From contig NC_045696.1 of the NCBI RefSeq assembly GCF_009834535.1, positions 50,036,001 to 50,100,000 of the forward strand: 64,000 nt of DNA. The letters run 5' to 3'. The first letter of the stretch is position 1. The number at the start of each line of letters is the position of its first letter. The notes below the pieces were generated by a model. The model ran no database searches. It was not told where the DNA came from and saw only the letters and a list, made by a program, of their open reading frames with translations. Source of the stretch: Camelus ferus (lineage: Eukaryota). The translations under genes and the position numbers were made by a program. This document shows, in pieces, positions 4,396 to 39,700 of this stretch.

Positions 4396-4584
4396 TGGTA
4401 TAACCAGGGATTAGGCAAGCAAGGAAGTCCAAAAATAAAAATCAAGTTTTAACAGATTACCAGAGTAATGGTTATTGAGTAACAGGTTTGGGAGGAAAAC
4501 CCCAACAGTTCCATCTGAGTTCCAGAGTTTCAGGTAGAAAGTGAGAAACTCCCAATGCTAGTGAAGAATTTATCAACGAATTTC

Positions 4585-4648
4585 ATGGGCTTCCCACTCC
4601 ATCCTGCTATCCAGCTCCTTATGCTTTCCCTCTGGGTAAGAGGATCAG
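4585..4648 (+). CDS. CD200-like paralogue, signal-peptide exon ([21 protein letters not shown])
   Basis: ATG at 4585, with another in-frame ATG at 4555. Hydrophobic core [11 protein letters not shown] followed by RGS. Phase-1 donor CAG|GTAACT joins the IgV exon in frame (G+AT = Asp). Confidence 0.6.
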
Positions 4649-7600
4649 GTAACTTTTAATTTTTTCTCTCAAGTGCATTGGCTGGAAATCAATGGCAAAT
4701 AAATACCAGACTGTAGTCTTTTTACTTCTATAAGGTTAGATAGAGGATTATGTTTGGGTCTGCATGTTAATCACGTACGTATCTGAGTTGTTGGCAATTA
4801 GCAAACAGTTGAAGTTGAGCATATTTGAAATAGTGACTTTGTAAACAGAGAATGAAAGAAATGTAATGAGTCCTGCTTCTGAAGTGAGCCCAAGTCTCAT
4901 AAACTAGAGAGCCAGAAACCTGCTGGAGGCAAATGAGCTCTTTGCAAGTTAGTTTGTTTTGCAGTATTCTTTGCAGCCCATTTGCCTTTTAGGTTTTATT
5001 TGTTTTGAGGCTTTTCTTGGTCAAAAAATTTTTCATTTTTATGCTGTCAAATCTGTTGGGATTTTTTTACTTTTTTTACTTTTTTTACTTACTTATCATG
5101 ACAAACTGAGGTACACCTGAAACACGTTAAAAATTTAGTAAATATTTCAAGTCTTGTTATTTTCTAGTCATTTAAAATAATTTAACTCAAATCCATCTAA
5201 TATATTTAACTCAGATCCATCTAAAACCAGTTTGGTTCATGGTCAAGGCAATAACTAATGTTCTATAGAAATTCAATAGAGAAAAAAAACTCATAGTAGC
5301 TTCTAGTTAAGAATTTTTTTTCCTGGGGGAAGTATCATCTGAGTTTAGTTAGACGGTTCAATCAAAATTTGAATGTGGGATGATATATGCTGAGGACAAA
5401 AAGTGTGAGAGGTAGAGGAAACCATTATGTTACTTCTCCTTAATTTACTTCTGCATCTAAAATGCAAAAATGGGTCAATAAAAAATGTTTAAAAAAATAA
5501 AATAAAATGCAAAAATGGGAAAGATTGGTAGTGTCATCAAGTAACTCAGAATCTAGTAAGGGAGACAAGCATGTGAAAAAGTAATGATGAAACTGTGTGG
5601 TAAGCACAATTATAGAAATTGTTATGGAGATAGTGATAGCTTGTTAACTCTTCTATATTGCTATTTTTTTACTTCCTTATGTATTATTGGATCTTTCCTT
5701 GAGGGTAGGGACTATATAACCCATATAACTGACATTACATCTACATGTTCTTTTTTGATATTCACAATACCCTGTGAGTCAGGGTATACCCTATCAACTC
5801 TGATGTCTATATAGGTTACATGTGCAATAAACTTAGATTTTCAGGTTACAGTCTTTATTACTTGGCATCCTCAGTCTCCTAAATGATTGGTTTTTTTTTA
5901 GTTGTATACATTAAAGATCACTTTACCTGCTGTAATGCTCAATTCATCTTGACAAATGCATAATGTCACTTATCAACCACTGTGGCTTCACACAGAATAG
6001 TTTCATTGCCCTAAAACTCCCCTGTGCCTCACCCATTCAACCTTCCCCCAACCTCTGAATCCCTGGCCGCCACTGGTATTTTTACTGTCTCTGTGGTTTT
6101 ATCTTTTACAGAATGACATAGACTCATTCAGTATATAACCTTTCTAGACTGACCACTTTCACTTAGTAATATGCATTTAAAGTTTATCCATGTCTTTTTG
6201 TGGTTTGGTAGCTCATTTCTTTTTATAGGTGAGAAATATTCTATTATATAAATGTAGATCATTTACTCATTCACCTATTGAAAGTACCTTGGCTGCCTTC
6301 ATTTTTGGTGATTATGAATAAGGCTGCTATAAACACATCTATGCAGATTTTTGTGTGGATCTAAGTTTTAAAATAAGTTGCGTAAATACCTAAGAACACA
6401 ATTGCTGGATCATACATTAAGTGTATGTTTAATTTTGTAAGAAACTGCCAAACTGTCATGCAAAGCTATACCATTTTACATTTTTATCAGCAATAATGAG
6501 AATTTCTGTTTTTGGCCATATCCTCACCAACATTTGGTATTATAATTTTTTTAACCATTTTAATAGGTATGTAGTAAAATCTCATTATTGTTTTAATTTG
6601 AAATTTCCAGATGACAAGAGATTTTGTGTATTTTTTCATGTGCTTATTCGCTATTTGTATATTTTCTTTGATGAGGTGTCTGTTCAGAATTTTTTGCCTA
6701 CTTTTAAATTAAGTTGTTTGTTTTGCTATTTTTTGTATATGTTGAATACAAGTCTGCTATAGTCTAAATGTTTACACTTCCTCCCTCAATTCATATATTG
6801 AAATCCTAACCCATAAAGGTTATGGTATTAGTAGGTGGGGCTTTTGGGTGGTGATTAGGGCATGAGGGTACAGCCCTGATACATGGGATTACTGCTCTTG
6901 TAACAGATCCACAGAGCTTTTTAGTGCCTGTCCATGTGAGGATACAATGAGAAATGTACAGACTGTAAGAGAGCCCTCACCCAGTCATGCTGGCATCCTA
7001 ACCTTGGACTTCCAGCCTCCAGAACTGTGAGAAGTACATCTCTGTTGTTCATTAGCCACTCAGTCTGTGGTATTTTGTTACAGCAGCCTGAAAGGACTAA
7101 GACAAAGTCCTATGTCACATATGTATTCTACAAGTACTTTCTTCTAATCTATGGCTTATCTTTATATTCCCTTTACATTGTTTTTCACAGGACAAAAAAT
7201 TTTAACTTTAATGAAGTCCAACTCATGAATTTTTTTCCCTTCATGGGTCATACTTTTAGTAATGTATCTAATAACTCATCATCAAACCCAAGGTTAGCTG
7301 GATTTCCTCCTATGTTTTCTTCTAGAAGTTTTATAGTTTTGCATTTTTATTGGTCTATAAATCCATTGTGAGTTAATTTTTGTGAAACTCAGTTAGATGT
7401 CTATATTAAGTTTTTAGCATATGAATGTTATCAGGGGTTGAATAGTGTCCACTACACCCTGTTCCCAATTCGTATCTATCTGGAACTTCAGAATGTGATC
7501 TAATTTAGAAATAAGGTCGTTGCAGATGAAAGTAAGGTAAGGATCTAAGAATGAAATCATCCTGCGTTAGGGTGGGCTCTGAATCCAATGATGGCATCCT

Positions 7601-10600
7601 TATAAAAAGAGGGAAGGACATAGAGCCACAGCATAGAACACCATGTGAAGATGGAGGCAGGTATTATAGTGATGCACCTACAAATCAAGGAATTCCAAGG
7701 ATTATTGGCAACCACAAGAAACTTGGAGAGAAGGAACCAACACTACTAACAACTTGATCTAGGGCTTCTGACCTCTAGATCCGTGAAAAAAATACATTTC
7801 TATTGTTTTAAGCTACCAAGTGTGTAGTAGTTTGTCATGGCATCCCTAGGAAGGTAATCAGACATCCAGCTCCCCCAGCAGCATCATTTGTTCAAAAGAT
7901 GATTTTTCCTCCATTGAATTGCTTTTGCATCTTTGCCAAAAAAACAGCTGACTGTGTTTGTGTGGGTCCATATCTGGACTTTCGCGTCTGTTCCATTGAT
8001 CTATTTGTCTGTTCTTTGGACAATACCACACTGTATTGATTACTGCAGCTTTATACTAACTCTTGAAGTTGGGTAGCACCAATCCCCTGACTTTGTTTTT
8101 CTCCTTCAGTATTGTGTTATTCTGGGTCTTTTGCTTCTTCACATAAACTTTAGAATCAGTTTATCAATATCCATAAAATAACTTGCTGGAATTTTGATTA
8201 GGGTTGCATTTAATTGACAGATCAACTTGGGAAGAACTGATAATATTGAGTTGTCCTATCTGTGAATATGGAATATCTCTCATTAATTTAGTTCTTCTTT
8301 GATTTCATTCATCAAAGTTTTGTTGTTTTCCTCATACAGATCATGTATGTATTTTGTTAGATTTATGTCTAAGTATTTCATTCTCAAGTTAATGATTTTA
8401 GTGCTTTTCTGTATATAGGAAGATGCAAGAACCTGGGGTCACTGAAATTTTTCTTTAGATATGTGTCTTAACTATCCAGGGCTGATATATCCAGAGCACA
8501 GAGTGCTTCCTGTTTTCTCCATCTTGAATTCCCCTCAGATGCACTGTTGGTGGGTGACTGCAGTGGTTAATGGCTTGATCCTTAAAGAACTGGAATGTCA
8601 GGCAACTTTTTTTCTTTACAATACTGTGTTTGAGTCTGGTTTGGATTCTTGCTTTGTCTCTTCAGATTATTTTTATTCTTGGCTCATAGCATGCCTTATA
8701 ATTTTTTGTTAATATCCAGATGTGATACCTCAGGTAATAGGAACTAAGGTAAATAGAGCTTTAGCATGGGTTTTATGTTAATCTGGCTAGGAGTTGGGTT
8801 GTGTTGACTCTTCTGTAGGTCTAGGTGTCAAAGGCTTCAAATTCTTGTAGTTCCTTGTTTTTGCTTCCCCTGTTGATTTGAACTTCCCTAAGAACTCCTT
8901 ATTTATTAAAGCCTGAGACTTGCAACCATTTCAGCTGTAATCCACTATCATATTGGAGCCCTGTTGATGTGGTGGTAAAGAGTGAAGGAGGAGAAGTTTT
9001 TAAAAATCTTACAGTTAGAGAGACCATCAAAATTCATCAAAACGTACATCTGAAATACATGTAGGCTATTGTACAGGAGCCATATCATAATAAAGGTGTT
9101 AAAAAATTAATTTAATTTAATTTAAAAGTTTAAAAAAATCGTAAAACAAAGACTATAAAGTACATCACTTTGGAAATAAGCTCTGGGTTGTTTTCAAAAT
9201 AAAATCTGTGCAATAAAGAAAAATCTTACGGTTAAACCTCACTCTTTTAGTAGGCCTGTGTCCTTCGGCTATGACCTTCAAAATTTTTTACCTATTTTTT
9301 TCCTCCTTCCCCAACTTAAATGAGACAGGGAAGCTAAAGAAAACTGGAGCGGGGTCATTGTCCTTCCATCCACATGAGATAAGGCTCTGGTAAAGTCTTA
9401 TTTCCTGGGTAGTAAGTCTTTTTATGGAACATGCGCTGGGCTTATTTTAAAATGGTGACATTCCCTTCCTCTTGCTAAAGTTATGAGGTGATTTTTTTGG
9501 CATTGTATCATGAGAACTGGTGGAGTTCCAGCTGGTGAAACCTATAAAACCTGGGGTTCTCCCTAAGACTAGGTCCCTGAGGAGTTCATCACCCTCTAGC
9601 TAGGTCACAGTTAGCCTTCAGAAATTCATCAAAATTATCATTATTCGTCTTATGTTGTTTAATTTATGTTTCAACTTTTGTATTTAATAAATATTTATTG
9701 ATTAGATAGTATATACCAGAAACATTTTCAAAGACTACATATCAGTGGTGAAGAAGATAGAAGAATTTATTTTCTAATGGAGGAAGAGAGGCAAATAAAA
9801 AGATAACTATGAAACAGAGAGATAAGTGCTATCATGTGGTAAGTCTAGGGTAGTATGAAAATACATTTCTCTTAATTTGTACTGGATTTTATTTTCAGAT
9901 TATCCACAGAGGATAAAGCACAAAAATAATGAGACAGCTGTATTGGGAGAAAATGTGACAATTTTCTGCAATTTAACAACTCCAGCAGATGTTGTTCAAA
10001 TTACCTGGCAGAAGATTCAAGATTCTTTGCCACAAAATATTGGCACATATAGCAGTAAATATGGAGAAAAGATTCTTCCACCATATATAGATCGGCTGCA
10101 CTGTGAGGCCATTGAATTGAATTGTTCATTCATAACTATCCGTGAAGTGACATTTGAAGATGAAGCCTGCTACAAATGCTTATTTAATATTTTCCCACAT
10201 GGACGCTATGGAGGACAAATCTGCCTTAACATTATAAGTATATAAACTTTTTATGTGGAGTCAAAATCATGGGGATGTGGTCTTTGAAGTTTAAGATCCA
10301 GAGAAAGAATTTTAGAAAAGGAACAACAATAATAGAGTTCATTCAGGCAAAGTCCTTTATTTTACAGAAGAACAGAACAGGAGCCAATGATGGTCACATG
10401 CTTTGCCTATTTCCACACAATGCAAGACCTAACACAGCTTTTAGGTTTTCAGACTTCTTATCAGACTTTTTTGGTACTACACTGCACTGCCTTTAGTCCA
10501 CTGGATGAATCTCATGAATGGCATTAGGATTTTCGCTGGGAAAATAGAGGAGAAGAAAAAGAGACAGTAGAGGAGAAAGAGGAAAAAAGATGCTAAGAGA

Positions 10601-13600
10601 ATAAGAATTTCCCAATCTTCAAATTAACAGACCATTGAAGGGATAGTGATAGTGTCATACTGTTCCCTCATTATGTTTCTATAAATTTAAAGTATTAAGG
10701 GTTTATATAATTTAAGTTTAAGGCTGAATGGAAATAGAGATACCAATTGTCCCTCTCAAACTGGAGGATAGTGGGTGTAGGAGGTAGAATTGGGAGCTTT
10801 TGTAAAAATGTGGGGAGAGGTATTTGAGATGGACATGTTTTCAACATTTTATTTTCATAGAAAAATTTATTGGCGAGTCCACCTCTAACACCATAGAAAT
10901 CTAGGATGACGTATTTTTATATTAATTTTGTTTCTCTCTCTCTTTCTTTTTTGCCTCAGCTCTATCTGAATTAAGAACTGAACTCCAGTCCAATCTTGAC
11001 TGTGAAGATTTTCTTAGATTTACTTACTCAGCTGTGGGAAAACCTGCTCCTCAAATATCTCTTTTCCCATTACAAGTCTTGATTAATCCACCAGAGGAAT
11101 CCCTTGCTCTGAACCCCAATGGCACAGTCACTGTCACTAAAGTGTATAACGTCTCCTTAGAGACTGTGAGGTCCCTCAGACTCCAACACCTGACTGTGCA
11201 CATGGATCATCCTCTGAAGAATGAAAAGAAGATCATTCCTCTGACAGTCAAACAAGAATGTAAGTAGAAGTAATAACCAACAGTGGGGAATATTCACCTT
11301 TAAAATTCACACAAGTATTTGTGTGGCCATCTATTTGTAAAACTATAAATCAGGATAATACACCCACATGGTTAAGAGAATCAAATAATGAAGATAGGAT
11401 CTACCCCAGCCCTGCTTCAGGGGTATCTGTTCTTATACTGCAAAATTTAAAAAAAAATATTTATTTTTTCTCTTTTTGTTGGGGAGGTAATTAGTTTTAT
11501 TTTTTTTAATGGAGGTACTAGGGATTGAACCCAAGACCTTGTGCATGCTAAGCACACACTCTACTACTGAGCTATACCCCACTTACATGGTAAATTTTTA
11601 ATTGATCTCCATTACATATTTTTCCCTAAATTTCTGCTACAGTCAATGAAGATTAGGCTCCTTCAACTTTTGTTCCTTTCATAAAGTCCCTTTCCTTCTC
11701 AATATAGTTCTTTTGCTGCTTAAACTCTGCAACTTTCAACAGTATGGTTAAACCTTTTTTCTTTTTCATTCACCATAGAAAGCCTTTGTTAGCTACCACT
11801 TCTGCTTGCCCATCTTCCTTTCAAGCTTTGTCAATGGTATCTTCTGTTTCAAAGCCATAATTCAAAACAGATAACTTCCCTAAAGAATTTAAATAATAAT
11901 TCAAATATATACATTTCTGTAGAATTTAAATAATTAAATATTCCACCTAATAATCTTTTAAAATGAGAACCTTTAATCTCTATATATTCAGTACAAATAC
12001 TGATGTATTTGGGTTTTAATTCGCCACCTTACTATTTATTATCTGACCAGTTTTATGTCTTTTTTTTCTCTTCTTGAATTCCTGTGGATTAATTATTTAT
12101 TTTTATTTCATTTCCCCTCCTCTGATAGTTGGTTAACTATACATTTCTATATCCATCTTTAAGTGGTTGACTTGGAAATTATGCATCCTTAAAATCCTAT
12201 CTTATTATCTAATTTTATACGAGCTATTACCTTTTCATCTTTTACAACTGCATTTCCATAGCTTCATTGTCAACAGAGCTCTTGTCATCATGTTCAGAAA
12301 TTAATGTGCTTTGACCCCAGTTTCTAGATGTGAGAAAGCCCAGTTTCCTGCCCTCATTACATAGTCTTAAATATATTGTATAGAAATAGAGAAGAGCTCC
12401 TGGCTTATCTGCCAGCTAGAGTTTCCATCTCTTCCTCCAGAAGATATCCTCCTCCTGAAGAAAAGTAGACATTCTACTCACATTCTAGCATTTCCCCACA
12501 CTTTCTGGATACCTTTATGTTTGAGTAAATACTACAGAATAAGTTTAGATGTCAGTTATGGTGGGTGAATCCTGCTTACCTCTTAATCTATGATAATATC
12601 ACATCACTATATCACAGATAATGATAGTCATTGTTCTATGGTATTAACTATAAATTAGTCTATTTTTATATTATGTTTTCCATAGGCAATAAAATAATAA
12701 TTTTTCTCTTAAGTTTATCAGTTCTTTTTATCCAATTTTTGTTAGTTTCAAGGCTCACAAATTTTGTTCTTTGGAGGGCCAACTAACCATACCAGTCACT
12801 GTATGTGACTGTCATCATTTGTTTAATTCAGTGGATAACAATTGAAGTCACTCATTAGGAGTTCTTTTAATAGCTGTGTCAGTAATAATATTAGGTTGAA
12901 CCATGTGATATTGATAATATTTCAATCTTTTTATCTATAAAATTAGTTATTTTATAAGGTTAAATCTAATATAATTAGGGAATATCATTTGACCATTATT
13001 AAGACAAGGCTAACAAAGCTTCCTATTATGAAACTTCCACTAACTTTGAGGGCTTTTCCCACTTTTTAATACCTGGGAATTTGATCAGTTCCTCCTTTCA
13101 GAGCAAACATGCCAAATTCTCAACTTTATTCCAAATTGCAAAGAGCTGGATTTTCTCTTTTCACCTCCCTTCCAACTTTTCCTTTTGAGTTAGGACAAGA
13201 ATACATTGGATCTTGTGGCTGAAGGTCCAATGACAAACCAAACAATCTTTACCATTTTCTAGTGTCAAAGAATAATGTACTCTCTCCTTTCTGTTTAAAC
13301 AAGGGACCCAAGGCAGTCATGCCTTCTCTACATTTTAGAGCAAGTGCTCTCATTCCTTTATAGAAGCCTAGAGTTTTGGTGACTATCTTGCCATGAAGTA
13401 TCCCACTTAAATATCCTAATGAGTTACTAGGAGATGCAAAGAAATGATTCCATGCATCTGATAAAGAAATAACATTTCTCTGGGTTGTCACAGAGCTTCA
13501 GACAGTTAAGCCTATAGTTGTGTCATCCTTACCTTCAAAATACTATATACTTTTTAAATGAAGTTAAGTTGATTTACAGCTTTGTGTTAGTTTCTGGCAT

Positions 13601-14083
13601 ACAGCATACAGTCGTACATATATATACATATTCTTTTTCATATTCTTTTTTATTATAGGTTATTACATCATATTGAATATAGTTCCCTGTGCTATACTTT
13701 AAGACTTTGTTATTTATTTATATTATGTATAGTAGTTTGTATTTGCTAACCCTAAACTCCTAATTTATCCCTTCCCTCCTTTCCCTTTTGGTAACCATAA
13801 GTTTGTTTTCTACCTTTGAATGTGTTTCTGTTTTGTAAATAAATTCATTTGTCTCATTTTTTTAGATTCCACATATAAGTGATATCATGTGATTATTTGT
13901 TTTTCACTGTCTGACTTACTTCACTTAGTATGACAATCTCTAGTCCATCCATGTTGCTGCAAATGGCATTATTTCATTCTTTTTTATGGTTAAGTAGTAT
14001 TTCATTGTATATATTATTGTGTATATATTCTTTTTAATGGCTGAGTAGTATTTCATTGTATATATGTATGTGATATATTATAG

Positions 14084-14143
<60 letters not shown>

Positions 14144-17100
14144 CACAACTTCTTTATCCATTCATCTATCTATGGACATTTAGATTGCTTCTATGTCTTG
14201 GCTATTGTAAACAGTGCTGCTATGAAAATTGGGGTGCATGTATCTTTTCCAATTGCCGTTTTCTCAGGATATATGCCCAGGAATGGGATTGCTGGATCAT
14301 ATGGTAACTCTATTTTTAGTTTTTTAAGAAATCTCCATACTTTTGTCCATGGTGGCTGCACCAAATAATATTTTCACCAACAGTGTAGGAGGGTTCCCTT
14401 TTCCCCACACCCTCTCCAGCATTTATTGTTTGTGGACTTTTTAACAATGGCTACTCCGACCAGTGTGAAGTGATACCTCATAGCAGTTTTGATTTGCATT
14501 TCTCTGATAGTTAACTATATTGAGCATCTTTTCATAACTTATATTTTAACTTAAGTCTTAAATCATAGCCTAAGGCATTTTAAGTCTCATCCCTTGACCT
14601 TTATTTCTGGATGGTTTTTCAAACTAGTGGGCTACATCTCAGATTTCTGGAAGTTAACAAACACATGTACATATTTTGCTGAAACATACCCTCTTCTGTT
14701 AAAGCCTTAGCTTTTTCAAATCACATATTATCAGAAGATGTAATGGCTTAAACAATATATTTCCTCTCTCTCTTTTTCAAATTACCTTAATGATTTCCCT
14801 GAAGGATTTAGGTATAATGAGTCTAGGGTTTTTGTGTCTCTCCCACTTCAGACTCCAATATGCATGAACAGAGTTGCAACAAATTTCAATATTAAATATG
14901 AACTGAAGGATTGACAGACATCACTTGGGCAAATCAAACAAAATTTATTTATCTAAAGAACATCAAAATATACAGCAAAGGGATTAGCAACATTCTTCAA
15001 GGGAGATATCAACTTCTTCTGCAAATCAGCTTAATAATATCAGAGTAGACCAGCTAGCTAATACTAATCACACTGTAAGTGTTTAGTATTCAGATAATAA
15101 CACTTCAATTTCTAGACGTTAAAATGAGAGTGAAATATTTTCTTTTTCCAGAATACTCATTGAGAAGGCAACTACTTTATTACAGATCATTTTAGAAACT
15201 AGACTATAGTACTTCAGCGTATCTTCTGCAGAAAGCACAAGCTAATGACTTTTTCAGAATCTGATTTGATAGGACAGCCTGCAATTGAACTTAAGGTGTT
15301 TAATTTTGAGTTTTATATCTTGATAGCTTTCATAAAATTGCTATGGGTGGGTGACAATATTAAATGTCAGTTTTGTAAGAAGATATCTTGTTTTATTAAG
15401 ATAACTTTACATAATTTATATTTTTGTTTTTTATAATGATGAAAAGGTTAAAATATCTCCATAATCTGTCACATTCACCAAGACCCAAAAAGCATCACTA
15501 GCCTTCCATGATGTTGAATCATAAAGTTTAAATGAGTGAAGGAGACATCACAGTTTTTGGAAATCTAACAGTTTGCAAATAGCCAACTACAGGATGGTTG
15601 GAATGAGCACTTTAGTAAGCAGTCCAGATGGGCTAAACATAACCTTATTTAGGCCTAGGACATCTCATCAATCTCTGAATTAAGCAATCTCTGGGTTAAT
15701 CTAAGTAAAGCGCAAAATGATGACTAACACAAAATGAGACTATTGTAAAGCATAATACACTCAGGTCAACACAAACCACTCTCTTTCATTATTTTCAACC
15801 TCTCCAGGCTATGCAACCTGGTTCAACTCAATGCTTAGAATTAGAACAACCAGTGATTTTCTTAGTGAGTCTGGTGGTCATGCTAACAGGCCACAGGATA
15901 TATCCTACAGTCTTATAATGCTTTTACATGTGATTGACAGCTTGCTCTTTATACGACTTTAGTTTAATCATCCTTCTTCCCTCATAACTTCTAGAGTATT
16001 TTTCCACTGCCTTGACCATCCATTGTTATTGATGAGAAGTCAAATGTCAATCTGAAAATTGCAATAGTAAATATTATTGTATCTTCTCTTTGGTAGCATA
16101 GTATCTTCTCTTTATTGTTCGAGTTTTGAAACTTCCTAGTGCTATTTTTAGTTGTCTTTTTTTTTAATCTTTGATGTGATGGGTATTTGGTGAGTTCATT
16201 CAATCTGGAGACTCCAATCCTTCAACTCTGAATATTTCCTCATTTCCTTGAGAATTTCCCCCCTGTTCATTTAACATTCTCTTTTGATAAACCTCGATTA
16301 AGTGGGCAATAAAACATGTAGATTGGATTTTATATTATTTTATTATTTAATATTCATATCTCTTTTTCTTTTCTTTAAGCTATCTGGGAGATTTTCTAAA
16401 ATTTGTCTTCAAACTCTTTAATTCAATTTTCCTTCTTTTGACAATCAGGTTTATAATTCTGAACTGCCTTTACAATTTAAAATTAATGTCACAAATTAAA
16501 GTTATTTTAAATCATCCCATTTGTTATCTCCACCAATCCCCTCCTCACCTCCACTACCATCATTTTAATTTTATGTTTCTTCTACTCAGTATTTCTCACT
16601 TTGATTACAGTCTACCATCAAAGTCCTCTGAGCCTTGACTGAAAGTTTACAGACTCTTTATTTGGTTTATTGTGTCTTGTGAAGAGATTAATTTTCCTTA
16701 AAGAAAAAGATCCAACAATCCTGTAGTTGGCTGCTGAAGAGAACAGGCAGCAATTAGCCAGGAGACTCTAAAAGCCAGAATGTGGAGGCCTTTTACTCTG
16801 GTGCCTAGTTATTCCCAAATGTTAAGTAAATTTCTTTCCCTCCATGTTTTTTGCCTGAGGGGTAAACATTTGTCTGTCCAAAGTTGTGCTTTGGGATATG
16901 GAAGTGGATGCTTTTGACTGCAACTTTTATTCTGTGATTCACTCTTCCTCTCTTTATCTTCTGAATCCTGAGCCTTTCCAGGCTCTCCAGGCTCTCTCTG
17001 CTCATATAGTCTCCTTTGTACGTAGCCGAGCCTGCAGTGACTTTCATCTTGCACCTTTATAGGCCATTCCTCTATGCTTTTTACATCTTTCATAAGTTTG

Positions 17101-20100
17101 TTTAAACCTTTTGCTAATGAAGATCTCTCTTCTATTTGTTATTTTTGGTTTAATCATTTTATTTTTGTTACTATTATTTTCATGGAGCCTCAGGAAAGAG
17201 TAGAAATAACTATTTTTGTTACATGTATCTCTTGAAACTGGAGTTAATCAGCATTTTTTTGTTTCCTAGTAAATTTCCCCAAATTATGAGAATGAATTAT
17301 GCCAATTGAATAGCACATGTATCACCCATCAAACTATTGGGTAGATTATTCTGGTTAATTTCACTTCTCACTGAGATATAAATGTCTGTAAAAAGTAACA
17401 TCAATTCAGAAGAGGACTTCTCCTTGCTTAGTTTTGTAACAAGTATTTGTGGTATAAATCAGTGATTCTGCTGAAACCTTGTATAGAGTTTTTTCCGCTG
17501 TGTTCTGTTGCCATTGACTTCAGAGCTGTGTTCATATTTTCATGCCAAATTCTTCCCATTTAGCTTCCTCCACCAACTTTGAATGAGCTATGTAGCATCT
17601 CATTGAAAAAAGAACATAGTTAAAACTAGAAACTGAGACAAAGTGATAGCTGAACAGTCAAAAATAAACGGCACAACGTTCCTCAACTAAAACACATAGA
17701 CTTTCTAGTAGTATTTCAGGGAAGAAGTAATTGCTAACAAGGATTTCTCTTTTCCTTCAATGGTACTGGAAAATTAAAGCAGCAAATTAAAAAGGAATGA
17801 GAGTTTACAATGAGCAGAAAAATGACATCAATCTGACAATCAGAAAGAGGACAAAAACAGCCAATCACGAGAAGACCTAAGAATGTAAAATGCACAGTAG
17901 TTCATGCCATTTAATATAAGTGCAAATTTCCTAAAAGTCTATCCACAAAGTATAGGTTCATTTTTATATTACATTTAAGAAATACCATTGATAATCATAA
18001 AAAATGGCCTTTGTTAAGTTTAAATTGCAACAAAAGATAACATTATGTTCAGAAGTCTACATAGAAAGAAGTGAAGTTTATAATGCAATTTTAAAACATT
18101 GTGGTCAAAATAGCTACTGTAAAAGTGTTGATACTCAAAATTTTACAATTTGTGTTTTACTTAAGAGTACAGACCCTAGAATCAGACAGAACAGCACTTG
18201 CTCCCCAGTTTTGTCACCTAATCACTGTAGTTTTGGGCAATTTTCTTACATTTCAATGCCTCCATTTTGCCATTTGTACCAAATAACTGTGCTCACCTAG
18301 TTGATGTAAACAATTGGAGGGGTGTCCCCAATGTTCATAGCAGCACTATTTACGATAGACAAGACATGGAAGCAACCTAAATGTCCATCAAAAGGTGATG
18401 GGATAGAGAAGTTGTGGTATATATATACAATGGAGTACTACCCAGCTATAAAAAAGAATGAAATAATGCCATTTGCAGCAACATGGATCAACCTGGAGAT
18501 CATCTTCATTCTCAGTGAAGTAAGCCAGAAAGAGAAAGAAAAATGCTGTAATATCACTCATGTGGAACCTGAAAAAAGGACATAAATAAACTTATTTACA
18601 AGCCAGAAACAGACTCACATAGAAAACAAACTTATAGTTACCAGGGGGAAAGGGAGTGGGAAGGAATAAATTGGGAGTTTGAGGTTTGCAGACACTAATT
18701 ACTACATATAAAATAGATAAACAACGAGTTTCTTCTGTATAGCACAGGGAACTATGTTCAATATCTTGTAGTAACCTATAATGAAAAAGAATATGAAAGG
18801 GAGTATATATACATATATATGTATGACTGAAACATTATGCTGTACACCAGAAACTGACACAACATTGTAAACTGAATATACTTTAATAAAAAAATGAAGA
18901 GGTTGAAAAAGTATTCCTTTCTTCCCTTTTAGGTTCTTTGGTGAGTCTAATAATTAAAATTGTATGACAGATTAACAGGACAAAAACAAACAAAAGTTTA
19001 GTAACATGTATACATGGGAGATACCCAAGAAAACTGAGCAGGTCTTTGAAAGGACTGAAGACATCATGTAAAGTACCATCTTCAGCTAAAGACAAAAGAA
19101 GATGGTGGGGTGGGGAGTTAGTTATGGGAGGTTACCAGGAAAAGCACTATAAACAAGGGTAAGTTTATTATGTAGATTTAAATTGTTGCCTCCTCAATTG
19201 ACAAGTTTCTAGAGATTTAGGGTCATCCACCTCCTCCTGGAACAAATGGAGATTTCTCTTATATACATGAACATGTCTGTTACAAAAAGGGTAAGTTCTA
19301 CTTGATTTTCAGTGTTTCTCCTGTGTTTGCAGCTTCTTACAATCAGTCTAAAATAATCTTTATGTCAAAGAGACATATATTGGGGTGGCAAATATTGCTC
19401 CCCTACATAATCTTTATAAAATGCTTATCACATTGCTTAGACTATTAATCTTAAATACTAATTATTATTATAAATTTATTTTCTGAGGGTATTATGGAAT
19501 CTTTGGAAATTTCATTTTAGTAATTGAATAATATTTCATCAAGTGAATGTATTACATTTTGCTTAATCATGTTTATGTGATTATATCTAAGTGAATATTT
19601 AAATGGCTATACTATTTGTTAATTCTTGAGAATGGTAGGATGATAATAAATGTTATCTGTCTTCGATTTGAATGCAGATTAGTATATTCTTTTATAAAAT
19701 TCAGTATGGCAAGTAATCTAATAGTATCGATTTGAATGTCAACAAGGCAATGGTAAATCAAGGGCATTGCAGTTCAAAGGTACCAAAATGACAGTACAGT
19801 GTATAAAAAGAGGTATGGTCCCAAAGAATGTGTTTCTGATTTGTGTTTTTCAGGTTCTGCTCGTTCTTCTTATACTCGGCTGCATATAGTTGGTGTGCTT
19901 ATAATTTTTCTATGTATTTCATTTATCATCTGTATTGTTCTGAGAAAGAAAAAGTAAGTTTTATTACTACCTGTCCTGATAGAGAAGGTGAGTAAAATCA
20001 GGCTAGTTTCAAATCTGGAAAAAAATAACCCAAGGGCTCTGGATCATAAAAAGAATCATGGAAAACTCTTTTCCATATCCTTGGTGATTTTGCAGTCAAG

Positions 20101-21224
20101 GATTTATCCTTATTAAGATGATACTCTACTTGGGATTGTTACAAAGGTAGGGTGTTAGTAATCATTCATGCTTTTGGTAAATTGAGTTTAAGGTTCTTTC
20201 TTGAGGACAGATTTTGACAAGAGAGAGCATATAGACTTCAGACAACTGGTGGGAGGAGGACTACTGGGTGGTAAAAAAAGCCTGAGGTTGGAAGTTTGAG
20301 ATAAATCTACCTGACAGAGCCACAGTAAGATGACAGTGGTCCTACTTTACAGGACTAGTATAATGAAATATCCATTCAGTGATTTAACAAATACTTCCTG
20401 AGGGTCTATGTATTGCATTGTTCCCAGTGTGAGAGACAGAGACACAACTGAAACAGACAAGTTCTTTGCCATCAGAAGCTAAAGTCACAGTGGGGAGGGG
20501 TAGTCAAGAAAAGATAGAAGAAAATACTGGGTAGTGATAAGTACTATTTAGAAAACAAAGCAGAATGATATAATTGAAAAAGATCATGGGGCTAATTGAT
20601 GTGGAGTGATCTCTTTGGGGAGATGACATTTAAACTGAGAACTAGGTCAGAAAAAATGTCATGAGTAAAGTTCTTGGCAGAGCATTCCACGCAAAAAAGG
20701 AGTTAGTATAGGTCCTTCAGTGGGAATGAGCTTGGTGTGCCCCAAGAAAAATGAGAAGGTCAGTGTAACCTTTTGAAGTATAGAATAATACTTCAAAAAA
20801 TAGGAATGGGGCCAGAACAGATAAGGCCCACAGTCCTGGACAGGCATTTGGGCTTTTAACTATCTGCAATATCAATCCATTGAAGTACTTAAAACCAAGG
20901 AGTACAAGGAACCAGATTTAAGTACCTGAAATTTACAGAGATGATAAGGGCCAGAGTTATAAATTTGGGAGTATAGTAGGAAATTTCTCCAGGAAATTTA
21001 TAAATCATATCAAAACATTATTAAAAATCAGTGATCAAAAATATTATTGAAAAGATATTTTGTCTGTCAGGAGAGCTTCAATCTCTCAATTTTTAATTCA
21101 GAGCATGCTCTTACAATGGACTCCATTTGGGGGAGGGTTTGGGCTGATTCAACAATGGATCCATTACTGTCATTATATCTGTAGGTCAGAGAATGTGCTT
21201 CAAAACACGCTCCACCTGAGATAA
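4585..21224 (+). CDS. CD200-like (OX-2 membrane glycoprotein-like) paralogue, spliced CDS join(4585..4648,9899..10237,10960..11259,19854..19953,21185..21224), 280 aa; probable counterpart of mouse Gm609/Cd200l1 (iSEC1)
   Basis: Five GT-AG-bounded exons with compatible intron phases (1,1,1,2) total 843 nt with no internal stop. They give signal peptide, IgV, Ig-like, TM and short tail. The IgV motifs ITWQK and [13 protein letters not shown] match CD200 VTWQK and [13 protein letters not shown] in the same window. Confidence 0.8.
6755..7104 (+). mobile_element. MaLR solo LTR (MLT1A-like) with 5-bp target-site duplication AAGTC
   Basis: TG...CA termini (tgctatagtctaaatg ... gactaagaca), ttggacttccagcctccagaactgtgaga motif, and AAGTC at both 6750-6754 and 7105-7109. 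Confidence 0.85.
7426..7860 (+). mobile_element. MaLR solo LTR (MLT1B/C-like)
   Basis: ggttgaatagtgtcc start; gaatgtgatctaatttagaaataaggtc; catgtgaagatggaggcag; tttctattgttttaagctacc. Confidence 0.8.
8385..8620 (-). mobile_element. ERV LTR fragment
   Basis: ttaatgattttagtgcttttctgtatataggaagatgcaaga... resembles artiodactyl ERV1-type LTRs as I recall them; ends in ...ttaca (TG on the minus strand). Confidence 0.5.
9899..10237 (+). CDS. CD200-like paralogue, IgV domain exon
   Basis: Acceptor ttttcag| at 9898. Translation contains [27 protein letters not shown] and ICL. Phase-1 donor A|GTATAT. 339 nt. Confidence 0.9.
10960..11259 (+). CDS. CD200-like paralogue, second Ig-like (degenerate C2-type) domain exon
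   Basis: Long pyrimidine tract plus ctcag| acceptor. Open frame [33 protein letters not shown]...NPNGTVTVT...KQE aligns with CD200 [19 protein letters not shown]...HPNGTTSVT. Donor T|GTAAGT. 300 nt. Confidence 0.85.
11460..11582 (-). mobile_element. tRNA-Ala-derived camelid-type SINE (vic-1-like)
   Basis: Reverse complement GGGGTATAGCTCAGTAGTAGAG...GGGTTCAATCCC (A and B boxes) followed by an A-rich tail. Confidence 0.8.
13550..14535 (-). mobile_element. LINE-1 3' end (5'-truncated)
   Basis: ttagattccacatataagtgatatc; ccatccatgttgctgcaaatggcatt; ggattgctggatcatatggtaactctatt. Confidence 0.85.
14087..14140. repeat. (TA)27 microsatellite
   Basis: Perfect TA run inside the L1 3'UTR. Confidence 0.95.
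18322..18895 (+). mobile_element. LINE-1 3' end with A-rich tail
   Basis: The ORF track shows [21 protein letters not shown]...FAATW (L1 ORF2 C-terminus), followed by 3'UTR and aataaaaaaa. Confidence 0.9.
18905..19406 (-). mobile_element. ERV1-type solo LTR
   Basis: Ends ggggtggcaaatattgctcccctaca (TGTAGGGG on the minus strand); body resembles mammalian ERV1 LTRs. Confidence 0.55.
19854..19953 (+). CDS. CD200-like paralogue, transmembrane exon ([33 protein letters not shown])
   Basis: Acceptor gtttttcag| in phase 1, about 19 hydrophobic residues, a basic stop-transfer RKK and a consensus donor AA|GTAAGT. Confidence 0.75.
20370..20920. mobile_element. L2 fragment
   Basis: ccattcagtgatttaacaaatacttcctgag...tatgt; gagatgacatttaaactgaga; ggcagagcattcca; tttgggcttttaact. 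Confidence 0.6.
21185..21224 (+). CDS. CD200-like paralogue, putative last coding exon ([13 protein letters not shown])
   Basis: Acceptor atctgtag|. The phase-2 join gives a 13-residue extension to TAA at 21222-21224. AATAAA follows at 21378. Confidence 0.5.
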
Positions 21225-21377
21225 CCTAACTGGACACCCGAATGAGCCACACACCCGAATGAGCACAGGTAATTGGAAGATGCGTAATTTTTGTTGTCAT
21301 TGTATATACTTCAAATTTAAGACAACTAACCTTCCATATTAAATCTTCCATTTGGTAGCAGCAATCATTATTTTAAA

Positions 21378-21383
21378 AATAAA
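21378..21383 (+). terminator. Candidate polyadenylation signal of the CD200-like gene
   Basis: AATAAA about 150 nt after the predicted stop codon. Confidence 0.4.
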
Positions 21384-25468: not shown

Positions 25469-26165
25469 CAAAAAACCTAATGCTACTTCTTAAGGAGCTA
25501 TAAAAAGAAGCAAAAAACTGAGTCAAGAGTTAGGTGAAGGAAGGAAGTTACAAAGATTAAATAAAATAGAAAATAGAAAAAATCAACTAGACTAAGAGTT
25601 CGTTTTTGAAAAGATAAAATTGATAAACCATTAACTAGACTAACAAAAAAAGAGAGAAGACTCAAATAAATTAAATAAAAAATGAAAGAATAGACATTAT
25701 GACTGATGCACAGAAATAAAAAATATCGTAAGAGACTGCTATGAAAAATTATATGCCAACAAACTGGATAACCTAGAAGAAATAGATAAATTCCTAGTAA
25801 CATACAACCTATCAAAACTAAATCATGAAGAAGTAGAAAGTCTGAACAGAAATATAACCAGTATGGAGATTGAATCAGTAACCGAAAACCTCTGAACAAA
25901 GGGAAGTCCAGGACTAGATGGCTTCACTACAGAATCCCACCAAGCATTTAAACAAGAATTAATACTAGGGCTTCTCAAGCTCTTTCAAGAAATTGAGAAG
26001 GAGGCATCAGTTCCAAACTCATTTTACTAGGTCAGCTTTACCTTGATAGCAAAGCCAGACAAAGACATCACAAGAAAAGAAAAACTACTGGCCAATATCC
26101 TAAAAATATATATATATATGTAAAAATCCTCAACAGGAAATTGAATTCAACAGCACATTAAAAGC
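25469..26165 (+). mobile_element. LINE-1 ORF2 internal fragment, opposite orientation to its neighbour
   Basis: tatgccaacaaactggataacctagaagaaatagataaattcct; ccaggactagatggcttcact (PGPDGF-like). Confidence 0.85.
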
Positions 26166-26177
26166 CTCTTACAGGCT

Positions 26178-31200: not shown

Positions 31201-31810
31201 TTGGAAAAGATACATGCACCTCAATGTTCACAGCAGCCCTATTTACAACAGCCAAGACATGGAAACAACCTAAGTGTCCATCACCAGATGAATGAAAAAA
31301 GATGTGGTATCTATCTATCTATCTATATCTCTATATATTTCTGTCTCTCTCCATATATGAAATAATGGAATGTTACTGAGTCATACAAAACAATAAGTAA
31401 TGCCATTTGCAGCAACATGGATGGGCCCAGAGACTATCATATTAAGTGGAGGAAGCCAGGCAGAGAAAGAATACTATCATATGATGTCACTTATATGTGC
31501 AATTTTTAAAGAAATGATACAAATTTTATTTACAAACCAGAAATAGATTCATGGATATAGAAAAAAAAAACCACTGGTTATAAAAAAGGAAAGGGGAGAG
31601 GGATAGATTAGGAGTTTAGGATTAACAGATACACATTATTATATATAAAATAGATAAACAATAAGGACCTACTGTATAGCACAATTAGTTGTAATAAGCT
31701 GTAATGAAAAGAAACTGAAAAAATATATATGTATGTATATGTATAACTGAATTGCTTTGCTGTATACCTGAAACTGACATTGTAAATCGATTAAACTTCA
31801 ATAAAAAATA
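28205..31810 (+). mobile_element. Nested LINE-1: inverted 5'UTR piece (28205-28715), sense 5'UTR piece, then ORF2 RT/C-terminus, 3'UTR and A-tail
   Basis: RT motifs (atgatcatctcaattgatgcagaagaagcttttgataaaattc; ggaacaagacaggaatgccc), [10 protein letters not shown]...IESPEIN, and aataaaaaa at about 31800. Confidence 0.85.
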
Positions 31811-31829
31811 AGAAATAAAATAAGACAGA

Positions 31830-36760: not shown

Positions 36761-39700
36761 CCAGGCTATGAGAGACAGACATTTTGTTTATTCAGGATCT
36801 GTATACATGACAAAATGAAGGAGAGGGTTTTCATTTACACTGGTATAATTTTAGAAAACAATAAAAATTAAAATCCAAATACAGGTAATGCCTCAGGGTA
36901 TATTTTTTTTCATATATAGTTTATTGGCAAGACCCCACAGCCGGTTATTTCAATGTCTTTCTTAACAAAGGCCTTCAAGTGATGTTTACCATGTGCTAGA
37001 TGCTCTTAACCTTCATAACTATCCTTCAGAGGAGGAATTATTACCCTGTTTCACAAAGAAACAGGTAGAAAATGTCTCCAAGTCCATGTGACTGTGTAAT
37101 ATATGTCAGGGTCAGGATTTGGACCTAGAAGCTTTCAGGGAACGAGGTACGTATAGGGACAATGGAGCTGCCAGGCAGGCAGCTATCAGGTAAGAGCCAG
37201 GGCTCTGTAAACCCTGGCCCTCTTGTGAAGGGTTATTAAATGAACTTATCCATTTCCATTTCTGTATAATTTGATTAACCACGTAACACATGTTGGCATT
37301 TACCATATCTTAGGCACTGTATTAAATTCTCAGTGTAACCCAATGAGATAACAGCAACATTGATCTAGTACTTATTTCTATCAGTCACTGTTCCAAGAGC
37401 TTTACATATATGACCTCATTTAGTCTTTTTAACAGAAAGAAGGTTGGGAATATTTTTTCTGCATCTCAGAAATGTAAAATGATCTGTCCCAGCTTACACA
37501 TCTAGTCTTTGTGCTTGCCTGAACTCAAGTCAGCCAGAGGAAATATGTATATATTTAATAGCAGGCCTTTCCTTCTAATTCCCTTTGCCTCAGTCACTGT
37601 GCTTCTGTTTCTTGACCACTGCTGGCTCCCAGTTCACATATCTTGTGTTTTGGCTTTCTCGCCTATCTTAAACCTCAGATTTTTCACGCTGAGAGACAAA
37701 CTATTCTGCATTCCTCATCACAGCCTTTGCTAAAGCCTGGATTTCAATGTGGCATGATGGTTTAAAAAAAATTGATATGGGATTAGAATGCCAGAGAAAA
37801 TGTTTTAGTTTCAGAAGCCAAAGTTGTTAAATAGCGAGAGCCTAAATATTTGAGTTTTAAAAGCCTAAATGCTGAAAGACCAAGGATAAACGTTCATCCA
37901 AGAAGGAGTTGATGGGAAGAATACAAGGTGATGGAGGTGGCAGCTTTTCTGACCCTAGGCTGGGGGAGCAAAGAGGGACTGACTAGTGTCTATGCTAAGA
38001 CACCAGTTTGTGTCCTGAAAAGGATGCTTTGTGCCTGGTCCCCAGGAATGGGGAATTCAGGAGGATGGTAATAGAACTTGGTTGAAATTCAAGGGCAGAA
38101 AGCATCTGTGCCTTGCTTTCCTGTGTTTTCTGTTTCACTGTTCCCTTGCCGTGATGCCAAGGCCTCCCATTGCTAGGGACCACCATGATGAGAGACACGC
38201 TGCTGCTTTTCTGCCACAAAACCAAAGGTTTCCAAGTGGTTAAACTGTAGCTGCAACATTCCCTGACATAGCGATCAGATCAAAGCTTCCTTAGCCTTGT
38301 CCTCATCCAAATGCCCATTTCTGTCCTTTGCTTTCTGTCTTCAGGTGTTCAGGAGGCTCTTCTGTCATCTGTTCTCCTGCAAACTGATCTGGTTCTTGTC
38401 AGCTCTGATACTATGCGAGGCACAAGGTAAAGATACTCCATTGCCCTGCTTGGAATCCAGGAAACACAATTTCTAGAGTGGAGCCATTTGGCCACTATTG
38501 TTTGTGCTGTGCTGTTTCGTCTGTCTGCGTGGATTATTTCAACGTGTGATTCGTTTGGAAGAGTGGGAGTGGTTCTTTCTACTTTCCCCGTTTTTGTTAT
38601 CAAAGACTTTGATATTTAGAAACTGTTTTCATAGACAAAACAGATGTAAAAATTCTTTCTAAATTAAGATTAATTTTTCATCTATCAAGTTGAATAATGA
38701 TTAAAATAGTAATGCTCTATGTTTGTAAAGAATTGGGAATACTTGGGGGAGTATGAGTGAATAGGGCCTTTTTGGAAGGTAATTTAGCAATAAGCCTTAA
38801 AATTGGGCGTGTCCCTCTTTTACAGAAAAATATTAAAAATAATGAAATAGGGAGGTTACATAGGTTCACATAGTCTATTGCCTAAACCATACACCTGCAC
38901 TGCCCACTTACCTGCTGAGTTTCCTACTTGTGTTAGACCTTTCTCCGTGATTCCATAAGACACCACCCCTCACCTTGCTGCTGGCCCGTTTGGTTTTTTT
39001 TTTATTGAAATATAGTCAGTTACAATGTGTCGATTTCTGGTGTACCCCATAATGCCCCAGGCATGCATATACATACGTATATTCCTTTTCATTAAAGGTT
39101 GTCACAGGATGTTGACTGTAGTTCCCTGTGCTACACAGAAGGAAGTGCTGCTGGGCTTTTATCTCCTCCTGTGTGCTGTTGCTCTCCATCAGCCTTCACG
39201 GGGTGGGAAGGGGTAGCGTCACACCATCTGCAGCACAGGATTTACGACTGGGGGACTCTAAATGGAATTTCATACAAGCAGCAAAGAATTGTAAACTTTC
39301 CACTAAATTATTTCTTCCATAGTCAAAGAGGAAAATCGCCCAAGGTGTTAAAACTCTAGCTTTGATACCCTTTTCTCCTCTCCATTCTAAAAGCAGCAAT
39401 TTCTTCACATCTCTGCTCTGCAACATCTCAACCAATGTTTAGGAAACGCCGGTCCTAACAACGGATGTTGCCCTGGAACTTTGCACATCCACTGAGAGTA
39501 CCCCTCACTAAAACCAGACTTACACGACACCCGGGGGTCCTGATTTGTACGTGTCGCTGTGCCCATCTGTTCATTCCTGATGTTCAGGGTTGTTGAGAGG
39601 ATGTTGTTGGGCTGCCTCCTTTTTCCCTGATTACTCTAGCCATTTTATCTGTATCATTAGTGTTAGAAAAAACAGATTTTGGTGTTTTTGATTAAGTCTA

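Follow-up and report, generated by a model that had tools for sequence, protein, structure and literature searches.

Mouse iSEC1 is an epithelial ligand of CD200R1, an inhibitory checkpoint of myeloid cells and gut intraepithelial T cells. The question raised by the locus described here is whether the CD200-related gene lying upstream of CD200 in Camelus ferus is a working gene and, if so, whether its product belongs to the same ligand system. The window (the whole stretch of DNA that was analysed, 64,000 nucleotides) contains what is probably the single-copy camel orthologue of mouse iSEC1/iSEC2, encoding a functional, glycosylated type I membrane protein that would act as a ligand of CD200R1.

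The coding sequence rebuilt from the window consists of five exons on the plus strand, which add up to 843 nt (280 codons and TAA) and contain no internal stops. The four introns are all of the GT...AG type with polypyrimidine acceptors, in phases 1, 1, 1 and 2, and the five phase-compatible exons and stop-free 280-residue frame proposed in the preliminary description are thereby reproduced. Exon 1 (4555..4648, +) encodes the leader peptide and ends in phase 1 at the donor CAG/gtaact after 4648. It offers two in-frame ATG codons ten codons apart: the one used by RefSeq at 4555, giving 290 aa, and the one at 4585 from which the preliminary description started, giving 280 aa. The tblastn search with camel protein P0121 places its residues 1-32 at 4555-4650, and the methionine of MGF..., equivalent to 4585, is the start in most orthologues. 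Exon 2 (9899..10237, +) encodes the IgV domain, predicted to bind the receptor and identified by its PDB match, Pfam V-set match and model pLDDT; exon 3 (10960..11259, +) encodes a second Ig-like domain, a beta sandwich in the model; exon 4 (19854..19953, +) carries the stalk Cys, the transmembrane helix and the LRKKK stop-transfer sequence; and exon 5 (21185..21224, +) contains the last 12 residues and the TAA stop (21222-21224). The previously given span, 4585-21383, does hold the gene, but its limits need correction: an AATAAA polyadenylation signal predicted from sequence (21378..21383, +) ends at 21383, the coding sequence ends at 21224 and RefSeq starts it at 4555.

The gene itself is not new: RefSeq already lists it, and its family has been described in print. 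Its longer, 290-aa translation is identical at 290/290 residues to P0121 (Camelus ferus XP_032335020.1, 'n=4 Camelus'), named 'OX-2 membrane glycoprotein-like'. RefSeq entries with an intact frame exist in four camelids (Camelus ferus, C. bactrianus, C. dromedarius and Vicugna pacos), the identity being 289/290 in C. dromedarius and 285-286/290 in Vicugna pacos, and the camel genome contains one gene copy. More than 100 mammalian orthologues are annotated, and the available text of Kojima et al. (2016, PMC5098219) mentions that iSEC1 has orthologues in numerous further animal species; the novelty implied at first is therefore lost. On the other hand, the search of the literature on iSEC1 and CD200, within the text available, yielded no functional data for members from species other than rodents, in agreement with the view that it is largely uncharacterised outside rodents.

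The predicted product has the CD200-type layout of a type I membrane protein that had been recognised from the beginning: an N-terminal hydrophobic leader, an IgV domain, a second beta-sandwich domain, one transmembrane helix (hydropathy is highest at residue 246 in the 280-aa form) and a 17-residue tail. Assignment to the CD200 family follows from a V-set domain nearest to CD200, the extra F/G cysteines, and two Ig-like ectodomains followed by a transmembrane segment and a short tail. The IgV exon matches Pfam V-set (E 5.9e-07), contains four N-glycosylation sequons and, in addition to the canonical Cys pair, has the extra pair in the F and G strands that is characteristic of CD200; cysteines of this kind are the mark of the 'MRC-OX-2-like' IgV type in the available text of Kojima et al. 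(2016, PMC5098219). The residues C55, C122, C125 and C140 (290-aa numbering) are invariant in 44/44 orthologues, and the columns matching these four IgV cysteines are invariant across the CD200-like and CD200 clades. The best PDB match of the IgV domain by phmmer is 4bfi_B (OX-2/CD200, E 3.5e-17), with nectin-1 behind (E 8.4e-12). The AlphaFold model (mean pLDDT 83.1; IgV 90-96; second domain 92-97) shows one beta sandwich at 42-146, another at 150-238 and a helix at 248-288, and Foldseek also ranks 4bfi_B, mouse CD200, first (E 9.3e-18, TM 0.76), nectin-1 and nectin-3 coming next with E about 5e-17. Domain 2 is more divergent: both canonical cysteines are missing (FTYSA, LTVHM), no Ig model was matched in the Pfam search of this domain, and its similarity to CD200 domain 2 is weak (E 0.11). 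Two cysteines may be unpaired: C100, which is at least 90% conserved, and C245 in the stalk.

The best matches of the protein are in the CD200 family and its relatives are distributed across mammals, 121 of the 160 candidates having E<=1e-5. Among marsupials and the placental orders, IgV identity to the camel protein lies between 57 and 92% (pig 92%, horse 90%, mouse 70-71%, marsupials 57-62%), compared with 40% for the camel's own CD200. A camelid-only gene is ruled out by these relatives in placental orders and marsupials. In the careful tree the CD200-like (29 rows) and CD200 (21 rows) clades split with support 100/100 along a branch longer than 3 changes per site, although the TWQK and CLFN.F motifs are invariant in both. 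The window protein falls in a placental clade (25 rows, 98/92) with mouse P0107 and P0097, and the quick tree also groups camel with mouse. P0107 (LOC208166, which we take to be Gm609) has 312 aa, the same length as iSEC1, and on these two grounds we infer that it is iSEC1. The proposed membership of the gene with mouse iSEC1/iSEC2 thus agrees with both the trees and the available text of Kojima et al. (2016, PMC5098219).

The camel IgV domain is on average 83.1% identical to those of 14 other placentals, and the CD200 value is 83.3%; with an intact frame and an IgV domain as conserved as that of CD200, the description of the gene as an intact, old CD200 paralogue under constraint is well founded. 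The corresponding values for domain 2 are 72.2% and 84.0%, and judged from these identities domain 2 is evolving faster than CD200 domain 2. Its two cysteines are both present in marsupials, one is missing in mouse and both in camel.

CD200 proper (38345..46514, +) adjoins downstream on the same strand, as located by tblastn of the Camelus CD200 proteins P0131 and P0132, and the position of the gene upstream of CD200, noted at the outset, is confirmed. Its coding exons lie at 38345-38428, 41175-41381 (alternative), 41498-41845 (IgV), 44180-44455 (C2) and 46392-46514 (TM), all on the plus strand, and its IgV, at 41564-41842, is 39.8% identical to the CD200-like IgV. The earlier distance of 15 kb holds approximately for the GC-rich CD200 promoter region, whereas 17.1 kb separate the CD200-like stop codon from the first CD200 coding exon. 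The blastn comparison of the two gene regions gave 9 HSPs (72-85% identity) covering none of the exons; since all of them lie within introns or between genes and their orientation is mixed, they are interspersed repeats. The same contig carries an intact CD200R1, about 0.37-0.39 Mb downstream of CD200. Its V exon (C1:50470810-50471217, minus strand) is 100% identical to Camelus ferus CD200R1 (P0251), with 9gwt_P CD200R1 as best PDB match (E 1.3e-36), and P0251 carries EEDE..PYASYTEKNNPLY, so the Dok2-type signalling motif is kept. NECTIN3, too, is on this contig, 0.86 Mb upstream of the window.

Concerning function, the IgV domain would present the face formed by the C, C' and F strands and the FG loop, as CD200 does; by analogy, this face may engage the V domain of the inhibitory CD200R1 on neighbouring leukocytes, and such engagement would dampen those cells. 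The disulfide-free domain 2 could serve as a spacer, and the conserved stalk Cys (QEC) or the conserved extra IgV Cys (RLHC) may form a disulfide-linked homodimer of the mouse type. The camelid tail is short, which implies a ligand with no signalling of its own. The 17 CD200 contact residues taken from the available text of Hatherley et al. (2013, PMC3664923) were mapped onto the camel protein: compared with CD200, 8 are identical, 2 conservative and 7 different, while 6 are invariant in 44/44 family members. At the site of CD200 K100, a residue that makes two salt bridges to the receptor, the camel protein has R and 36/44 orthologues have S.

It is rather unlikely that this expressed and conserved gene has, in camelids or in non-rodents as a whole, a main partner different from CD200R1, either another IgSF receptor or a homophilic, nectin-like adhesion. 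The seven contact positions unlike CD200 would fit such a partner, as would the nectins and CD226 being the next-best sequence and fold matches, the name 'nectin-1-like' given by NCBI to several orthologues, and the fact that in the available text of Kojima et al. binding is shown for the mouse proteins only. Against it, sequence and fold searches alike rank CD200 first, the gene has CD200 as its tandem neighbour, and the contig also carries an intact CD200R1. Furthermore, because camel and mouse P0107 share 14/17 contact positions and the face is nearly invariant across 44 orthologues, the receptor specificity found in mouse is likely ancestral. By homology, the camelid product would then be a second CD200R ligand, and the camel protein may share with its mouse counterparts the ability to bind CD200R1 and to dimerise, as well as a specificity for gut or another tissue.

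Regarding expression, public RNA runs with the exons of the gene have been located, and Logan contigs encode three proteins matching it: P0126 (278 aa, 2062-nt contig, 278/278 residues matched), P0129 (228 aa, 1180-nt contig, 226/228) and P0130 (240 aa, 971-nt contig with exons 2-5, 239/240). As exons 2-5 span 11.3 kb of genomic DNA, these contigs of about 1-2 kb represent spliced RNA. Two variants of exon 4 are reproduced exactly from the window: read-through of its donor, which reaches a TAA at 19955-19957 and gives the 278-aa form P0126, and splicing from a GT donor inside the exon, after 19892, by which the transmembrane segment is lost and the 268-aa form P0123 results, one of the RefSeq 268-aa isoforms (P0122, P0123 and P0124). 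The latter suggest a soluble, TM-less protein, secreted as agonist or decoy; that this is the main product instead of a cell-bound ligand is nevertheless quite improbable, the transmembrane segment being present in 3/3 Logan transcript contigs and the internal donor (TAGTTG/gtgtgc) being weaker than the exon-end donor (AAAAA/gtaagt). That this is a paralogue in decay, with a frame left open by chance, is very unlikely. Although the tail is cut by a stop with more stops behind and domain 2 has lost its disulfide and Pfam signature, four camelid species have an intact frame, as do orthologues in marsupials and most placental orders, the IgV domain matches those of 14 other placentals to the same degree as the CD200 IgV does, spliced transcripts exist and the fold is predicted with confidence.

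Returning to the preferred reading, a membrane-bound camel iSEC1-type ligand, some changes are peculiar to camelids. Their stop codon sits at the Q of the QLRQP... of other mammals, followed by two more stops in the old frame, and this stop-shortened cytoplasmic tail shows some relaxed constraint. As a separate observation, haplorhines gave 0 entries among the 120 matches listed in the iSEC1-like search, where the primates are Lemur and Nycticebus only, and 25 among the 120 matches listed in the CD200 search. A broader proposal can be put forward tentatively, as possible rather than probable: the iSEC1-type gene would encode a second CD200R1 ligand, ancient in therians and usually present as one copy, with IgV constraint like that of CD200 in most mammals, apparently lost in haplorhines including humans, and remodelled in camelids by the tail stop, the loss of the domain-2 cysteines and the S to R change at the K100 site. 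If this is true, humans lack an epithelial checkpoint ligand that livestock and most model mammals possess, and the camelid form may bind the receptor more tightly than other orthologues do. One intact, expressed camelid orthologue adds support to the view that this second ligand is shared by mammals in general instead of being a peculiarity of rodents; whether the loss in humans and other haplorhines is real, and what effect the camelid-specific changes have, are the questions that it raises.

Among known systems, the V domains of nectins, CD226 and TIGIT type are the second-best sequence and fold matches, weaker than CD200; they have neither the F/G extra disulfide pattern nor the tandem linkage, and nectins possess three ectodomain Ig domains. 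The herpesvirus proteins vOX2, K14 and e127 are CD200-family members that bind CD200R, according to the available text of Hatherley et al. (2013, PMC3664923). Viral CD200 mimics were retrieved only in the CD200 search, with 75-84% identity to camel CD200 IgV, viral proteins numbering 0 among the 120 matches listed in the iSEC1-like search. CD200 itself (4BFI; Hatherley et al., 2013, PMC3664923), the best sequence and fold match, is placed in tandem on the same strand and shares the V, C2-like, transmembrane and short-tail organisation, but it differs by its 40% IgV identity and by a domain 2 that Pfam detects. The closest likeness is with mouse iSEC1 (Gm609) and iSEC2 (Gm17783). Both bind CD200R, iSEC1 binding being blocked after pre-incubation with CD200-Fc, both form disulfide-linked homodimers, and their genes adjoin CD200 (Kojima et al., 2016, Sci Rep 6:36457, PMC5098219, available text and Fig. 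1a legend). A member of this group would be expected to bind CD200R1 and not the activating CD200R-like receptors, and to be expressed only in gastrointestinal secretory epithelial cells; in that text, binding, dimerisation and gut secretory-cell expression belong to the mouse proteins only. Camel has one gene copy, whereas mouse and rat have two; its protein lacks both domain-2 cysteines, of which the mouse iSEC proteins keep the first, ends in a tail of 17 residues instead of about 45, and has two additional cysteines (NCS, LDCEDF). Nevertheless, the camel and mouse proteins belong to the same clade, occupy the same place next to CD200, consist alike of leader, IgV with the extra F/G cysteines, second domain without disulfide and transmembrane segment, and are 70-71% identical in the IgV domain.

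The gene studied here is a CD200 paralogue (iSEC1-like gene) located on the + strand 5' of CD200. Two long coding pieces stand out among the + strand stop-to-stop frames of the window, at 9859-10245 and at 10926-11267, and script assembly from the DNA gave five + strand exons: exon 1 (4585-4648), exon 2 coding for the N-terminal V domain, IgV (9899-10237), exon 3 coding for the second Ig-like domain, domain 2 (10960-11259), exon 4 coding for the transmembrane (TM) segment (19854-19953) and exon 5 (21185-21224). The four introns are all of the GT...AG type, with pyrimidine tracts before the acceptors and phases 1, 1, 1 and 2. The coding sequence has 843 nt (280 codons plus the TAA at 21222-21224), and an in-frame ATG at 4555 adds 10 residues. 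The assembled translation shows a hydrophobic leader, six N-x-S/T sequons and, around residue 246 of the 280-aa form, the single strong hydrophobic segment besides the leader; the C-terminus carries a basic stop-transfer (LRKKK) and then 12 residues. The preliminary description had claimed an intact five-exon structure, and all its structural points were borne out by the reading of the DNA and the script assembly. On the other hand, the end of the gene had been set at 21383, which is really the final base of an AATAAA, the TAA being that of 21222-21224.

When the IgV exon was used as query, 121 relatives were found at E<=1e-5 among 160 candidates. One of them is 'OX-2 membrane glycoprotein-like [Vicugna pacos]', whose 90% cluster has 11 members, from Camelus ferus, C. 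bactrianus, C. dromedarius and V. pacos together with three Logan-assembly sequences. The 290-aa translation is identical at 290/290 positions to P0121 (C. ferus XP_032335020.1; UniRef 'n=4 Camelus'), so the window comes from camel and RefSeq already contains the gene; the dromedary protein differs at 1 position and that of alpaca at 4-5. Two further RefSeq forms could be obtained exactly from the window: i) a 278-aa form, in which the exon-4 donor is read through to a TAA at 19955-19957, ii) a 268-aa form that has no TM segment, in which an internal GT donor after 19892 is used and 19854-19892 is joined to 21185. The latter is possibly a soluble form. The camel gene is not new: annotations of it exist in four camelids, there are more than 100 annotated orthologues and the function of the family was published in 2016.

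Regarding transcription, three Logan contigs encode this protein: P0130 (240 aa, 971-nt contig, exons 2 to 5) is identical to the window translation at 239/240 positions, P0129 (228 aa, 1180-nt contig) at 226/228 and P0126 (278 aa, 2062-nt contig) at 278/278. Exons 2-5 span 11.3 kb of the genome, and contigs as short as these can therefore be spliced RNA only. Besides, five RNA runs from three studies contain between 0.41 and 0.61 of the words sampled from window:9899-11259, a stretch with 47% of exon sequence; this share is consistent with spliced RNA.

According to available text of Kojima et al. 2016 (PMC5098219), mouse Cd200 is adjoined by two CD200 homologues, Gm609 (iSEC1, 312 aa) and Gm17783 (iSEC2, 320 aa). 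Both bind CD200R, neither of them binds the activating CD200R-like receptors, and the binding of iSEC1 is blocked after pre-incubation with CD200-Fc (PMC5098219). The mouse CD200-like proteins P0107 (LOC208166, 312 aa), which we take to be iSEC1, and P0097 (324 aa) share 70-71% IgV identity with the camel iSEC1-like protein. In a careful ML tree, 29 CD200-like proteins are split from 21 CD200 proteins at 100/100; within the former, the camel protein groups with alpaca and then with pig, in a placental clade of 25 rows (98/92) where both mouse and both rat copies are also found and to which the marsupial CD200-like proteins are sister. A quick tree including a turtle sequence agrees with it. 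The whole-genome search in camel for this type of IgV gave 5 matches, only one of which is the iSEC1-like gene, present in single copy; the others are CD200, a confirmed NECTIN3 exon and, on other contigs, two V-type exons that match more weakly. Its place in this clade, together with the one camel copy, identifies the gene as the only orthologue in camel of the iSEC1/iSEC2 pair of rodents, and the duplication that separated it from CD200 is older than the marsupial-placental split. Searches of the open-access literature found nothing on the function of its non-rodent members.

Two database proteins have unusual features: P0002 (Tupaia, 479 aa) is matched at 84% by the IgV query of iSEC1-like and by that of CD200 alike, and P0001 (Sigmodon, 603 aa) has double the normal length. 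Both are probably read-through models in which the iSEC1-like and CD200 neighbours are fused.

In the window, CD200 follows on the same strand, with a first coding exon that starts at 38345 and the IgV, C2 and TM exons at 41498-41845, 44180-44455 and 46392-46514, respectively. The IgV domains of both camel proteins are 40% identical, and blastn between the two gene regions gave only 9 HSPs, all of repeat type and some of them accounted for by LINE-like frames in intron 3 of the iSEC1-like gene. None of these HSPs covers an exon, which indicates an old duplication, as had been proposed beforehand. Between both genes, the stretch 26000-33000 has a strong A-over-T skew and LINE-1-like frames (e.g. 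27747-28103 and 32019-32375). Two matches to CD200 were also seen outside the window, on the same contig (G000:C1). The first one (49896432-49896515, - strand), about 140 kb upstream, shares 89% identity with the leader exon of camel CD200 (residues 5-32) and may be a stray duplicated exon. The second one (50116495-50116626, + strand), 16 kb past the window end and 34 kb after the CD200 TM exon, encodes the final 44 residues of CD200 isoform X5 (P0132), which thus extends outside the window.

The reading of the iSEC1-like gene as a pseudogene was rejected, because the frames of the orthologues are open across most placental orders and marsupials and the IgV is as conserved as that of CD200; neutral drift is incompatible with both facts taken together. 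Between camel and 14 other placentals, mean IgV identity is 83.1% in iSEC1-like and 83.3% in CD200, and mean domain 2 identity is 72.2% and 84.0%, respectively. The search for orthologous DNA in metagenome contigs yielded 120 pattern matches and 0 relatives.

The distribution of the gene may not be uniform in primates. Among the 120 matches listed in the iSEC1-like IgV search there are 0 haplorhine entries, in annotation lists that are not a genome test, and primates are represented there just by Lemur catta and Nycticebus coucang, whereas 25 haplorhine entries are found among the 120 matches listed for CD200. This lead from annotation lists suggests that the gene was lost or pseudogenised in monkeys, apes and humans. 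The matches listed for CD200 also include vOX2 proteins of Elephant endotheliotropic herpesvirus and one protein of a bat gammaherpesvirus, with 75-84% identity to the IgV of camel CD200, and no viral protein appeared among the matches listed for iSEC1-like. The viral copies among the matches listed are copies of CD200 rather than of its paralogue.

The closest solved relative of the IgV exon is mouse CD200 (4bfi_B, E 3.5e-17), followed by nectin-1 (8.4e-12). The domain 2 exon shows a marginal similarity to that of CD200 (E 0.11), and V-set is the sole Pfam domain in the camel protein and likewise in mouse P0107, while domain 2 of CD200 is recognised by Pfam. The AlphaFold model, based on 44 orthologues, is a confident one (mean pLDDT 83.1) and presents domain 2 as a beta sandwich (pLDDT 92-97). 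Foldseek over both domains gave 4bfi_B as top match (E 9.3e-18, TM 0.76), with nectins close behind.

The mouse CD200 residues that touch CD200R, and the mutations abolishing binding, are named in the available text of Hatherley et al. 2013 (PMC3664923), and 17 of these contact or mutant residues were mapped by alignment. At these 17 positions the camel iSEC1-like protein equals CD200 at 8 (T33, Q35, P42, N44, T47, L92, N94 and F96), is conservative at 2 (L30V and K100R) and differs at 7; with mouse P0107 it agrees at 14/17, and 6 of the 17 are invariant in 44/44 family members. K100 of CD200 forms two salt bridges to CD200R (PMC3664923). The equivalent residue is R in only 2/44 sequences, camel and alpaca (R134 of the 290-aa form, codon 10207-10209), and S in 36/44.

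As for the receptor, a Pfam V-set genome search for CD200R1 returned stronger V genes only (150/720 candidates scored, none near the window), no Ig-V-like frame was found in the 200 kb at 50.5-50.7 Mb and the camel-genome search with the CD200 protein did not reach CD200R. The gene was located by back-translating the published CD200R signalling motif into a pattern, which matched C1:50464912-50464946(-); this was one of 7 matches genome-wide, and the reversed control gave 12. The V exon that lies 6 kb past this match has CD200R1 as best match (9gwt_P, E 1.3e-36) and is 100% identical to C. ferus CD200R1 (P0251), a protein containing EEDE..PYASYTEKNNPLY. The CD200R1 receptor gene is present in the camel genome.

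Finally, the camelid protein has peculiarities of its own. Its tail ends in ...HLR*, where carnivores read ...QLRQPDVESL..., and the stop stands in place of the Q of the QLRQP... tail of carnivores, bats and lemurs (window 21222-21310). Past this stop, remnants of the old frame can be recognised (...PNWTPE*ATHPNEHR*), with two further stops, so that the tail has undergone a lineage-specific truncation. There are also two extra cysteines, in NCS and LDCEDF. The RLHC cysteine (C100 of the 290-aa form, codon 10105-10107), kept in at least 90% of the 44 orthologues, and the conserved QEC cysteine of the stalk, whose codon is split between 11257-11259 and 19854-19855, lie beyond the two IgV disulfide pairs. 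Mouse iSEC1 and iSEC2 are reported to form disulfide-linked homodimers (PMC5098219), and these two cysteines are candidates for that interchain bond. In the same report, iSEC1 and iSEC2 are described as missing one canonical C2 cysteine and keeping the additional cysteines in F/G that are typical of CD200 (PMC5098219). With respect to the canonical cysteines of domain 2, the marsupial proteins keep both and that of mouse keeps the first one, whereas both are absent from the camel protein.
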